Source: Candidatus Thorarchaeota archaeon (GTDB taxonomy: Archaea; Asgardarchaeota; Thorarchaeia; Thorarchaeales; Thorarchaeaceae). Taken from it: a DNA stretch of 64,000 nucleotides. The translations under genes and the position numbers were made by a program. The notes below the pieces were generated by a model. It ran no database searches and was not told the DNA's origin. It was given only the letters and a program-made list of their open reading frames with translations. The stretch spans positions 256,001 through 320,000 of the forward strand of contig DXJO01000010.1 of NCBI GenBank assembly GCA_019057475.1. Direction: 5' to 3'. This document shows positions 5,265 through 8,200 of this stretch, one piece after another (position 1 is the first letter of the stretch; the number at the start of each line of letters is the position of its first letter).

Positions 5265-8200
5265 CTATGCTACTATCTTCACTGGTTGCAGATTAACAAC
5301 TCGGTGTTCGCCTTCCACACTGTCGTATTCCACCATACCAACGAGCTCGCCCTCAGCGCCCGGCTGAAGCTCGAACTCAATCTCCACGACATTCATAGCG
5401 CCGGCCTCCACCGTGCCTATTGCCTCGCTTCTTATCGAGTCAGTAAGGTCCGGAACACCCAGTATCACTTGGACGTTCTGCATCGCGTTCTCCGAGCCGT
5501 TCCGTATCACCACTCCGAATACAACCTTGCCTTCACGGATCTTGTACTCTACCGCAACCTCCATGCCCGGTTCCAGACCAGGACTCGCAGGCTCTGCAGT
5601 CGTAACAAACTCCTCCACGAAGTACTCCTCGCGTACACGCTTCGTAACAATAGCTAGCCCTATCAGCAGACCCACAATCCCGGCCACAGGCACTACCCAG
5701 TGAACCGTTGGCATGAAGTCCGCTGCATCCAGAAGACCATCTCCGTCAGAGTCAGTGCTCAGAGGGTTCGAGCCGTACACGAAAATCTCGTCATAATCGC
5801 TCAGGGTGTCTCCGTCTGAATCCCATAGAGTTGGGTCTGTTAGGTAGACATTGTACTCCGCGCCATCGCTGAGGCCATCCGAATCTGTGTCGTTCGACAA
5901 GGGGTTCGTGTCGGATGTGAATATCTCAATGCTGTCACTCAAGCCATCCCCGTCCGAGTCGGCCGACGTTGGATCAGTGTGATGGGCAATAACCTCTTGA
6001 TAGTCATTGAGACCGTCAAGATCTGTGTCCGGTTTCCACGGGTCTACACCCAGGTCGACGTGCGTTATGACTTCATCGTAGTCGCTCAGACCATCCCCGT
6101 CTGAGTCAGCGTTTGTCGCATTGGTGTGGTATGTTTCAATCTCCATAAAGTCGGATAACAAATCTCCATCAGTGTCATTGCTCAAGGGGTTCGTTCTATG
6201 CTCGAAAATTTCTGGGCCATCCAAGAGGAGGTCTTCATCTGAGTCACTATTCAAGGGGTCCGTTCCAAGTGCTACCTCATAACCGTCTTCCAAATCGTCG
6301 TTATCTGAGTCTGGGTCAAGTGGCATTGTACCGTAGTCGCGCAGCTCCTCAAGGTTGCCCAGACCATCATTATCAGAGTCCCAATCATCATCAGATATCG
6401 TCGGTGAGAACGTGGTGTTCGTTGTCGGGTCTGTTCCGGTCAAGAAGACCTCTTCCCAATCCGTCAGAAGGTCGGAATCTGTGAAGTTGGAGAGCGGATC
6501 GCAGCCGTAGTCGAGTATCTCCTCCCCGTCTCCGAGACCGTCTCCGTCGGTGTCATAATCGAGGGGGTCGGTGAAGTAGTCTTCGACCTCTTCCCAGTCT
6601 GATAGGTCATCCGAATCTGTGTCTTCCTCTAGGGGATCTGTGCCATAGATGTGCATTTCATCACCATTACTGAGCCCGTCGTCATCTTCGTCGTCATTGA
6701 GGTCTGAAGTCCCGTCACCATCTGTATCCTTGATTCGCGGGTCGGTTTCTGTTAGGACGCACTCCTCCCAATTAGTGAGCAGATCTCTGTCCTCATCATC
6801 TGCCCCGTCTAGAGTGCCATCGGAATCTGTATCGTTAAGCCGCGGGTTCGTCAGCGTGAGCCGAATCTCTTGGCTGTTTGTTAGATTGTCTTCGTCCATG
6901 TCCCAGTCAGCATCCGATAGGCCGAACGGATTGCTGCTGTACAGGGTCGGGTCGGTCAGTGTCATATTGACTTCGTGATAATCGGTTAAACCATCGTTGT
7001 CCGAGTCTCTATCCCTCGGGTTGGTGAATACCAGTCTAAGTTCTTGCTGACCACTGGCATTGTAGAACTGCAGGAAGAAACCATTCACCTCTTGACCATC
7101 AAGGAGGAGATCCCCGTCGCTATCTTCCTTCAAGGGGTCTGTATTGTGGATGTCCAGTTCATCACCATCTCCGAGCCCGTCTCCATCAGAATCGTACTGG
7201 AGCGGGTCGGTTTCGAAGACCATGATCTCGTCGTAATCATTCAATCTATCCATGTCAGTGTCGGTTGAGTTCAGCAGAGTGTGGTACGTGAGAGCCTCCT
7301 CTCCATCCTCCAACCCATCGTCGTCTGTGTCTCTATCGTTGGGGTCACTGGAATAGAAGAAGAGCTCATCCCAATCCCCTAGACCATCTGCATCCGAATC
7401 CATGTTCCGTGGGTCAGTTTCACTGGTGAATATCTCGTAGAAGTCTGATAGTAGATCTCCGTCTGTGTCCAACAGGGTACAATTGGTTTGATACATGTAG
7501 ATCTCATCATGATTGTTGAGCCCATCGCCGTCCTCATCGTCAAGGTTGTCATCAATTCCGTCTCCATCCGTGTCTCTTAGGGTGGGGTCGGTGTGGCTGT
7601 TCCATATCTCGTCGTTATCTGCCAGATTGTCTCCATCTGTATCATCCAAGAGCGGAGAAGTTCCATAGATGTTCACTTCGTCGCCATCGCTCAATGAATC
7701 GAAATCTGAGTCTGGATTTTCAGGGTCAGTTCCCTCTTCCAGTTCCTCCTTATCGTTGAGTCCATCTCCGTCGACATCGGCTTCTGTGGGATCAGTCCCA
7801 TGAACCTGCCATTCATCCCAATCGCTAAGCCCGTCGCCGTCTGTGTCATTTGAGTTGGGGTTGGTCCCAAGTTCAATCTCCTGCTTGTCGTCAATCATGT
7901 CGCTATCGCTGTCTGGATTGTTGGGGTCAGTCAAGTATTCATTCACTTCATCTCCGTCCGAGTCCCAGAGCGTCGCATTGGTGAGCGAAACGTAGACCTC
8001 GTAGTAATCATCTAGGCCATCTGAGTCCGAGTCCGTTCCAGTCGGATTAGTATGGTAGATGATGTACTCCTCGTAATCACTAAGCCCATCGTTATCCGTG
8101 TCCATATCAGTCGGGCTCGAACCTGCGAAATTAACTTCTATGCCATCCCAGAGGCCATCTCCATCAGTGTCAGGGTTCGTCGCGTTTGAGCCGTAACCAT

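Follow-up and report, generated by a model that had tools for sequence, protein, structure and literature searches.

A 2258-residue surface protein of a Candidatus Thorarchaeota archaeon, encoded in the 64,000-nt window that was analysed (contig DXJO01000010.1, positions 256,001 to 320,000), probably ends inside the cell in a GAE-type Ig-like sandwich of a family expanded in Asgard archaea, a domain that would offer a putative protein-docking surface. In eukaryotic vesicle coats, ear (appendage) domains serve as interaction hubs, and GAE domains bind aromatic-Gly-[PDE]-hydrophobic motifs. Ear domains have already been described from archaea, Asgards among them: AP ear Pfam domains were reported in Asgard archaea (Eme et al. 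2023, PMC10307638), and archaeal ear domains were reported along with a Methanobacteriales protein in which a TM linker connects an extracytoplasmic GOLD domain to an appendage (Makarova et al. 2024, 10.1101/2024.02.06.579148). The novelty lies in the architecture, that is, an adhesin with a predicted cytoplasmic GAE-like tail, encoded in a conserved ABC/S8-GIFT operon.

Table 1. Features of the giant surface protein gene and of its neighbours (positions in the window).
Feature	Position	Strand	Evidence
Gene of the 2258-aa type-I membrane surface protein	5265..12041	-	one open frame; stop codon counted in
Signal peptide, aa 1-24	11970..12041	-	hydrophobic N-terminus, MKPYHLILGFVIVCALVGMQTTAG
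FG-GAP/VCBS-type beta-propeller head, about aa 60-400	10842..11864	-	Pfam Beta-prop_CGLA 3.8e-12
Asp-rich TSP3 calcium-binding repeat stalk, about aa 421-2105	5727..10781	-	TSP3_bac
Single TM helix, aa 2115-2133	5643..5699	-	Kyte-Doolittle 19-residue window maximum 2.37
Cytoplasmic juxtamembrane segment (predicted side), aa 2134-2159	5565..5642	-	alignment of the tail family
Cytoplasmic appendage/GAE-like beta-sandwich (predicted), aa 2160-2258	5268..5564	-	AlphaFold2 model and structural matches
ABC ATPase, 330 aa	12038..13030	-	Pfam ABC_tran 1.6e-26
Subtilase (S8) and GIFT/ABC_transp_aux-like membrane protein, 1464 aa	13023..17417	-	Peptidase_S8 3.4e-40, IFT52_GIFT 1.2e-6
ABC ATPase with N-terminal TrmB-type region, 566 aa	17425..19125	-	ABC_tran 8.8e-27, Regulator_TrmB 1.5e-8
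ABC-2 permease, 393 aa	19125..20306	-	Pfam ABC2_membrane_3 4.2e-28
Cytosolic TPR protein, 420 aa, downstream (candidate partner only)	3473..4735	-	Pfam TPR_1 8.1e-48

The giant gene is genuine and evolves under selection. Matches at E 2e-43 or better identified strong orthologues in 30 of the 36 genomes of the same family, in frames of roughly 2240-2300 aa save for three shorter ones (671-1222 aa), which are probably cut by contig ends, and a genome of a sister family of the same order encodes an orthologue with 30% identity in a 2197-aa frame. Between genera, the sandwich retained 70-74% identity whereas the extracellular propeller retained 41-45%. The propeller head also gave sub-threshold Pfam matches to Beta-prop_BBS7 (1.8e-4) and BBS2_Mid (8.7e-4), while the stalk matched TSP3_bac in 40 stretches (3e-80) and is rich in N-x-S/T sequons. 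Asp accounts for 19.6% of the whole protein, which contains 42 such sequons.

Kyte-Doolittle analysis revealed no hydrophobic segments in the giant protein other than the signal peptide and the TM helix. The latter is flanked by acidic residues on its N-side and by the basic KRVR on its C-side, and 41 of the 42 sequons, as well as all the TSP3 calcium repeats, lie ahead of it. By this logic of signal peptide, single TM helix, flanking charges, sequons and repeats, the C-terminal sandwich is placed on the cytoplasmic side, as the original prediction had it. In the alignment, the KRVR stop-transfer is followed by a variable stretch and then by a conserved (V/I)T-x-AEPAS-x-GLEPGM motif. The tail after KRVR comprises 125 aa, and the sandwich forms the C-terminal end of the protein. 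The peptides on which the prediction was built (VVFGVVIRNGSENAMQNVQVIL, GTVEAGAMNVVEIEFEL, EGELVGMVEYD and VVNLQPVKI) were all found in the 2258-aa translation past the TM helix and KRVR, and the interval assigned to the domain, 5265-5600, spans the sandwich and part of the linker. An archaeosortase-type anchor (PGF-CTERM and similar), in which the TM helix stands at the extreme C-terminus followed by just a few basic residues, was ruled out because 125 residues, about 100 of them folded, come after the helix.

That the last ~105 residues form a beta-sandwich was borne out by a confident AlphaFold2 model built from 27 sequences (mean pLDDT 81.7, pTM 0.73), which contains seven strands at tail residues 28-125. 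From residue 41 on, ten-residue blocks of the model averaged a pLDDT of 83-95, residues 1-20 stayed below 50, and the alignments to ears reached back to residue 13. When Foldseek's top 1000 PDB chains were re-aligned with VIA, beta-COP residues 714-825 ranked first of 999 (Z 13.1, rmsd 2.7, 110 aligned), more than one Z unit ahead of gamma-COP (11.8) and transglutaminase-3 (11.7); the preference for an appendage over generic domains, which the original prediction had proposed as a check, was thus observed. Among 48,161 representative chains, VIA placed gamma-COP first (Z 11.8, 113 aligned) and aligned 111 residues of the gamma2-adaptin ear (Z 11.1), and the top 28 included the ears of gamma-COP, gamma2-adaptin, COPI, GGA2, alpha-adaptin, beta2-adaptin, BBS9 and GGA1, those of gamma-adaptin and the GGAs at Z about 11. 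These eight ear/GAE entries aligned over 95-115 residues (104 or more in seven of them), whereas transglutaminase and GH2 domains spanned about 93-97. The fold alone fails to single out the ear family, since E-set sandwiches of other kinds (transglutaminase C barrels, ApaG, arrestin and GH2 Ig) reached Z 10-11.7 and lay only 1.4-2.5 Z below beta-COP. Ranking by Foldseek E-value put ApaG/POLDIP2 first, and both ApaG/POLDIP2 and transglutaminase ahead of the ears. We gave the full VIA alignments (Z and aligned length) and an independent sequence link more weight than Foldseek E-values, and, because the two rankings disagree, we do not call the evidence from the fold decisive by itself.

The best structural matches of the tail, the appendage sandwiches of beta-COP and gamma-COP (9qpq chain H 714-825; 1r4x; 5a1u), are cytosolic, and the tail agrees with them in side, size and strand order. 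COPI ears, however, are preceded by a HEAT/ARM trunk and hinge and followed by a platform lobe, whereas the tail has a TM helix before it and nothing after it, and sequence identity amounts to 10-13%, with no Pfam match. The GAE domains of gamma-adaptin and the GGAs (1gyu, 2ymt, 3mnm, 1na8 and 5cn2; Z 9.6-11.1, 107-113 aligned) resemble the tail in being a lone cytosolic sandwich of ~120 residues without a platform. They end soluble adaptors, whereas the tail ends a membrane protein and lacks an Alpha_adaptinC2 match. Transglutaminase C-terminal beta-barrels, ApaG/DUF525 and arrestin lobes share the general fold (alignments of about 95 residues for the barrels and 100-110 for ApaG/POLDIP2 and arrestin), but they showed no sequence or profile link to the tail and were not favoured by ESM when ears were allowed.

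Searches with the tail sequence were consistent with a narrow family. phmmer against 1.84 billion representative proteins returned only orthologue fragments and two repetitive Ig giants; therefore, the tail family is narrow and remote links needed profiles. A word-indexed search for homologues among proteins of 1241-3952 aa found none. No ear, CARDB, DUF11 or NPCBM_assoc model of Pfam matched the tail at E<=10, and the sole match of the tail alone, DUF1344 (E 0.047), was discarded as noise. Neither phmmer nor profile searches of PDB sequences produced a significant match, ears included; the non-significant ones were MexA (0.49), a GH20 Ig domain (0.15) and arrestin and beta-COP (about 0.4). 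In ESM-Atlas, where scores below 0.9 count as a lead only, the ten best named clusters were all Alpha_adaptinC2 (PF02883), Coatamer_beta_C (PF07718) or COP-gamma_platf (PF08752), at 0.82-0.89 with 189 shared features, and the best score dropped to 0.80 (149 shared features) when ear families were skipped. The N-x-[ST] ... N-V elements of the beta-COP pattern, cited in the original prediction, are present in the tail. As a whole, the likeness to coatomer and adaptin appendages that had been proposed stood in structure, in ESM and in the profile of Asgard ears described below, and did not extend to an ear Pfam match of the tail at E<=10.

A profile comparison connected the tail with cytosolic sandwiches of Asgard archaea. 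With disjoint profiles of 20 tail orthologues and 22 cytosolic Asgard sandwiches, hhalign gave a probability of 96.8% (E 2.1e-10, 88 columns), compared to 14.8% for DUF11 repeats and less than 1% for reversed profiles used as controls. Also, a single-sequence HMMER search matched a 788-aa winged-helix/Vps28_C-like protein of another genome, G054 (E 8.3e-6). Models indicate that these cytosolic modules, expanded in Thorarchaeota, are true two-lobed ears of the alpha/beta2-adaptin and COPI type. Such a module in a 758-aa zinc-ribbon protein of the same genome as the giant gene was modelled at pLDDT 90.5 and aligned to alpha-adaptin (Z 13.9, 193 aligned), gamma-COP (12.7, 198) and beta2-adaptin (12.6, 186), and each of its 12 best Foldseek matches, which spanned 207-228 columns, was an adaptin or COPI ear. 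A HEAT protein of this genome likewise carries an archaeal adaptin-appendage module. The archaeal modules (Ig and TBP) have a sandwich homologous to that of the tail, occur in the same phylum and lie on the cytosolic side. They differ from the tail in that they retain the platform, in their contexts (zinc-ribbon, winged-helix/PCI, HEAT, Vps28_C or GOLD) and in their ESCRT neighbourhood, whereas the tail lacks a platform, is carried by a 2100-aa propeller-TSP3 ectodomain and is encoded in an ABC/S8-GIFT operon. No platform lobe follows the sandwich in the giant protein or in any of its orthologues, whose chains stop right past the last strand. A platform lobe encoded by a split gene in the 530-bp downstream gap was ruled out, the ORFs there not being platform-like; one of them (4873-5157, same strand) encodes a hydrophobic, genus-limited product of 94 aa.

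These data point to a model in which the last roughly 100-113 residues form a cytoplasmic sandwich of the type seen in adaptin/COPI appendages (GAE). This sandwich belongs to a family of cytosolic Asgard sandwiches in which most paralogues add a TBP-like platform to give a complete two-lobed ear, and the giant protein has kept the sandwich alone, joined by a short conserved linker to its single TM helix. Outside the cell, the ectodomain would be calcium-binding, probably glycosylated and adhesin-like. By analogy with eukaryotic ear/GAE sandwiches, the domain may offer a docking face that binds a conserved cytosolic partner to the surface protein, and such docking might help to position, sort or turn over that protein or couple it to the ABC machinery of its operon. 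The tail is ear-like and not an adaptin, because it has no ear Pfam match and no platform lobe and a TM helix replaces the HEAT trunk.

The likeness to ears could alternatively reflect the common E-set fold with no functional parallel, the tail being a generic Ig domain (CARDB, DUF11, NPCBM_assoc or Transglut_C-like) that acts as a membrane-proximal spacer, a folding anchor or a self-association module. We consider this rather unlikely. In the family alignment of 27 members, sub-threshold Pfam matches to DUF11 (7 members, best 0.0012) and NPCBM_assoc (4, best 1.7e-4) do outnumber those to ear families (Alpha_adaptinC2 in 3, best E 0.011; PTHB1_GAE in 2; GAE_BBS1 in 1), the only non-orthologous phmmer match was a DUF11/CARDB giant (E 4.2e-7 summed over 13 stretches), and transglutaminase barrels reached Z 11.2-11.7. 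The hhalign comparison, however, strongly separated the Asgard ear sandwiches from DUF11 repeats, and a COG1470 (CARDB-like) cluster scored 0.78 in ESM, below the 0.82-0.89 of at least ten ear clusters. By title, the top 50 of both VIA lists contained no CARDB or DUF11 structure, a result that does not thereby exclude a family that is not listed, and a glycosidase Ig domain of the GH2 family (9fyo) was present there. The predicted cytoplasmic location of the domain and its conservation, higher than that of the extracellular head, also argue against a generic Ig.

Another possibility concerns the identity of the partner. The tail might dock the adhesin to either of the two cytosolic ABC ATPases of its own operon or to the S8-GIFT protein's cytosolic tail. 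A GldAFG-like ABC/GIFT machine would then couple its ATP hydrolysis to assembling, anchoring or moving the surface protein. We know of no such coupling for ear-type sandwiches. The order permease, TrmB-ABC ATPase, S8-GIFT, ABC ATPase and giant protein is kept in four other genomes, belonging to three other genera of the family (G007, G024 and G014) and to the sister family (G037); the 330-aa ABC ATPase occupies the same position in all four, and its gene and the giant gene overlap at the start of the latter. A shared extracellular function would, however, explain the conservation of the operon equally well, and we hold a partner within the operon to be unlikely. It would be compatible with the docking sandwich that we favour, because naming the partner is all that it adds. 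In G007 and G037, the gene of the TPR protein follows the giant gene on its downstream side, but it was not found there in G024 or G014, and for this reason its product stays a candidate partner only.

It is quite improbable that the tail acts as an ear integral to the cargo, one that recruits cytosolic small-GTPase, WD40-HEAT or ESCRT-type machinery to the membrane beneath the giant receptor. All of this machinery is encoded in the genome, and some of its components carry the same sandwich. The neighbours of the giant gene (ABC transporter, S8-GIFT, TPR and GNAT) include no ESCRT, coat-like or GTPase genes. The "proto receptor-coat link" advanced in the original prediction is purely an inference, and the giant gene sits in an ABC/S8-GIFT operon, not adjoining coat-like or ESCRT genes. 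Finally, a reversed topology, in which the sandwich would be an extracellular membrane-proximal Ig domain, is hardly credible: one N-x-S sequon does lie within the tail (NGS, aa 2181), but it must be structural, because the paralogues without a TM helix, which are evidently cytosolic, also keep it invariant, and the signal peptide, the single TM helix with its acidic and KRVR flanks, the calcium repeats and the remaining sequons all oppose such an orientation.

Asgard ear domains bear on the debate over the origin of membrane trafficking. The archaeal ears described so far belong to soluble proteins of the zinc-ribbon, winged-helix or Vps28 type and to one GOLD-TM protein. The GAE-like tail brings a new context, in which a surface protein kept across a whole Thorarchaeota family carries the sandwich half of the ear as its strongly conserved cytoplasmic terminus. 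Residues 2134-2258 represent a small soluble bait with a defined membrane context, which could probe the ligands of archaeal ears and the physical coupling of Asgard surface proteins to intracellular machinery. If the tail did function as an ear within the cargo, a single polypeptide would combine receptor and adaptor ear, as a forerunner in prokaryotes of the coupling between cargo, adaptor and coat, and the tail could be used as a bait for the membrane-remodelling machinery of Asgard archaea. Should the tail bind no partner but the ABC system of its operon, the ear sandwich would represent a general module for docking near the membrane, older than the eukaryotic coats that later recruited it.

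The giant surface protein (layout in the table) has an aspartate content of 19.6%, and 41 of its 42 N-x-S/T sequons lie N-terminal to the membrane anchor. Because of the positive-inside rule and the nature of the ectodomain, its tail is predicted to be cytoplasmic, with the beta-sandwich (aa 2160-2258) held to the inner membrane face by a tether of ~26 residues. The original prediction likened this sandwich to a coatomer/adaptin appendage, or ear, and every peptide that it cited was found in the translation where it had placed it. The propeller has a significant match to a lambda-carrageenase propeller (3.8e-12) and sub-threshold ones to the BBSome propellers Beta-prop_BBS7 (1.8e-4) and BBS2_Mid (8.7e-4). 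BBS proteins bear GAE domains too; in the giant protein, propeller and sandwich sit across the membrane from each other.

Giant surface protein and its operon (nucleotide positions in the window; aa, residues of the protein)
Feature	Position	Strand	Remarks
Giant protein gene	5265..12041	-	Single open frame, 2258 codons
Signal peptide	aa 1-24		Hydrophobic
FG-GAP/VCBS-type beta-propeller, after signal peptide	10842-11864	-	Pfam Beta-prop_CGLA 3.8e-12
Asp-rich TSP3 calcium-binding repeats, after propeller			~1700 residues; Pfam TSP3_bac 3e-80, 40 stretches
TM segment	aa 2115-2133		Sole hydrophobic segment besides signal peptide; acidic flank before, KRVR after
Tail	5268-5642	-	125 residues after TM
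Five-gene operon	12038-20306 plus giant gene	-	ABC-2 permease, TrmB-ABC ATPase, S8-GIFT, ABC ATPase, giant protein

In a six-frame search of 60 relatives, 30 of the 36 same-family genomes gave the tail with E-values no higher than 2e-43, as the end of frames of roughly 2240-2300 aa; three of these, of 671-1222 aa, are shorter and were probably truncated at contig ends. A sister family of the same order has a 30%-identical tail copy ending a 2197-aa frame. Among full-length orthologues of three other genera, identity is 70-74% in the sandwich, 41-45% in the extracellular propeller and 24-40% in the TM helix. The variable stretch that follows the TM is separated from the sandwich by a conserved segment, (V/I)T-x-AEPAS-x-GLEPGM; in all orthologues the last strand of the sandwich directly precedes the stop. 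We conclude that the giant-protein gene is real and that its tail is under selection. An ORF resembling the platform, the TBP-like second lobe of two-lobed ears, was sought in the 530-bp gap 3′ of the gene and none was found. Just 3′ of the gene lies a 94-aa hydrophobic ORF (4873-5157, minus strand), conserved within the genus only and present as two tandem copies in one relative (locus L004); it might encode a small membrane protein or have arisen by chance.

The AlphaFold2 model of the tail (27-sequence alignment; mean pLDDT 81.7, pTM 0.73) comprises 20 disordered residues at its start and seven strands over tail residues 28-125. Foldseek against the PDB returned a mixed E-set list, with ApaG/POLDIP2 (5e-5), transglutaminase-2 barrels (1e-4), COPI leaf chain H (2.6e-4, with the top TM-score, 0.64), GGA2 and gamma-adaptin ears (1.3-1.4e-3) and TRAP-beta. 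In a full structural alignment with 48,161 representative chains, the gamma-COP appendage ranked first (Z 11.8, 113 aligned residues, rmsd 3.0) and seven other ears fell in the top 28: gamma2-adaptin (Z 11.1), the COPI triad (11.0), GGA2 (10.4), alpha-adaptin (9.9), beta2-adaptin (9.8), BBS9 (9.7) and GGA1 (9.6). Interspersed among them were transglutaminase barrels (Z 11.2-11.5), GH2 Ig domains and ApaG. When Foldseek's top 1000 chains were re-aligned, the beta-COP appendage sandwich (9qpq chain H, coatomer subunit beta, residues 714-825) ranked first at Z 13.1 (rmsd 2.7, 110 aligned), more than one Z unit ahead of gamma-COP (11.8) and transglutaminase-3 (11.7). Ear matches span 95-115 residues (at least 104 in seven of eight) and start as early as model residue 13; the span is ~95 for matches to transglutaminase and GH2 domains. 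Judged by these ranks, Z values and aligned lengths, the top structural matches do prefer appendages and the proposed likeness stands, with a modest margin over other E-set sandwiches. We consider a generic Ig spacer devoid of functional parallel to ears unlikely.

In an ESM Atlas feature search, the ten best named matches of the tail were all eukaryotic adaptin/coatomer ear clusters (Alpha_adaptinC2, Coatamer_beta_C, COP-gamma_platf), scoring 0.82-0.89, the best sharing 189 features. Excluding the ear families brought the best score down to 0.80 (149 shared features) and left an unnamed cluster, a COG1470 cluster, the Thorarchaeota 758-aa family (see below), Transglut_C and TRAPPC13. Scores below 0.9 are leads only, and these matches are therefore concordant rather than decisive.

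The weaker matches of the relatives search were other sandwich proteins of four kinds: small TM proteins (~235-257 aa) with the sandwich as cytoplasmic C-terminus, a 788-aa zinc-ribbon and PCI/winged-helix protein with a Vps28-like end, HEAT proteins (412-485 aa) and zinc-ribbon arrays (760-780 aa). The soluble ones carry an alpha/beta domain after the sandwich. Their single-sequence Pfam matches, all sub-threshold, included PTHB1_GAE (best 2.7e-4), GAE_BBS1, Alpha_adaptinC2 and Coatomer_b_Cpla (best 0.021), and likewise DUF11 and NPCBM_assoc. The sandwich and platform region of the 758-aa protein of the same genome was modelled at pLDDT 90.5, and its 12 best Foldseek matches were all alpha-adaptin, beta2-adaptin, beta-COP or gamma-COP ears (207-228 columns); re-alignment gave Z 13.9 for alpha-adaptin (193 aligned), 12.7 for gamma-COP (198), 12.6 for beta2-adaptin (186), 11.6 for the AP-4 beta platform and 9.9 for BBS9, clearly exceeding the single-lobe matches. 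Of 151 genomes sampled from the phylum, 54 encode this two-lobed module, in up to 8 copies each. When a profile of 20 tail orthologues was compared with one of 22 of these cytosolic sandwiches, the two sharing no sequences, hhalign gave Prob 96.8% (E 2.1e-10, 88 columns), against 14.8% for DUF11 repeats and <1% for reversed profiles. Thus, at the level of sequence profiles, the tail sandwich is homologous to the sandwich lobe found in ear modules of Asgard archaea, the platform having been lost or never present.

The 788-aa protein (L023:2129-4492, genome G054 of another Asgard family) has a zinc ribbon at its N-terminus and a Vps28-like C-terminus (5.5e-4), together with four winged helices of PCI/E3_UFM1_ligase/DDRGK type, an ear sandwich (GAE_BBS1 0.027, Alpha_adaptinC2 0.16) and a region resembling a platform; it fits a known class of multidomain, ESCRT-I-like Asgard proteins (Makarova 2024, 10.1101/2024.02.06.579148). 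Outside the window, on contig C24 of genome G000, a 485-aa protein (L037:5244-6701, plus strand, within L037:3629-7273; orthologue in G032, L026:1845-3080) joins a weak HEAT_2 match to this ear-type sandwich (profile of the 27-sequence alignment, E 2.8e-10) and to a platform that weakly matches Coatomer_b_Cpla. Its neighbours are a WD40 propeller of 376 aa and two GTPases of Ras/Rab-like type (190 and 188 aa). The 485-aa protein is a solenoid fused to an ear, whereas AP domains were not found fused by Eme 2023 (PMC10307638). The ~235-aa membrane proteins at L025:409-2649 (G036) and L028:1493-2709 (G034) comprise a short N-terminus, one TM, a Lys/Arg-rich linker and a C-terminal ear-type sandwich, and adjoin an ICMT-like membrane protein (isoprenylcysteine carboxyl methyltransferase family, sub-threshold) and, in G036, also a Ras-family GTPase. 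A 607-aa all-beta protein without TM (L024:121-1941, G041) matches DUF11 (3e-13), NPCBM_assoc and, exactly at gathering score, the mu-homology family Adap_comp_sub (31.6 bits, E 1.4e-7, profile positions 125-228 of 259).

The giant gene closes a compact run of five genes. The TrmB-type region of the TrmB-ABC ATPase is N-terminal, and the S8-GIFT protein is a 1464-aa S8 subtilase and GIFT/ABC_transp_aux-like membrane protein. The order is kept in four other genomes, one from the sister family and the rest from three further genera of this family (L068, L069, L070, L071). The set of ABC ATPase, ABC-2 permease and GIFT/ABC_transp_aux is reminiscent of the Bacteroidota gliding-motility transporter GldA/GldF/GldG. 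Among the giant-gene loci compared, a cytosolic TPR protein lies downstream in the window, G007 and the sister-family genome G037, and was not found in that place in G024 or G014. A gene elsewhere in the window (154-3462, plus strand) encodes a protein of 1102 aa whose N-terminal domain is a GNAT acetyltransferase and which weakly matches the Ig-like ASH (ASPM-SPD2-Hydin) family (1.2e-4).

Under a calcium-binding surface protein there is, then, a well-folded, strongly conserved, membrane-tethered ear-type sandwich on the predicted cytoplasmic side. GAE and ear sandwiches are motif-binding hubs, and by analogy we think it reasonably probable that the tail acts as a docking module: it would bind a conserved cytosolic partner and so couple the surface protein to intracellular machinery. 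Candidate partners, which the present data do not rank, are the operon's ABC ATPases and S8-GIFT tail, the TPR neighbour, and the genome's GTPase, WD40, HEAT-ear or ESCRT-type proteins. A true receptor-to-coat-like link, as first envisaged from the appendage likeness, is improbable; no ESCRT, coat-like or GTPase gene adjoins the giant gene.

Adaptin appendage regions (Ig + TBP) are present in archaeal ESCRT systems, including Asgard multidomain Vps28_C/SB proteins and a Methanobacteriales protein with a GOLD domain, TM linker and appendage (Makarova et al. 2024, 10.1101/2024.02.06.579148). Ear Pfam domains of the AP type are likewise reported from Asgard archaea (Eme et al. 2023, PMC10307638). 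A full-text literature search found no description of a giant propeller-TSP3 surface protein with an ear-type tail; the novelty lies in architecture and context rather than in the class of domain. The tail offers a defined bait for finding the binding partners of Asgard ear domains.
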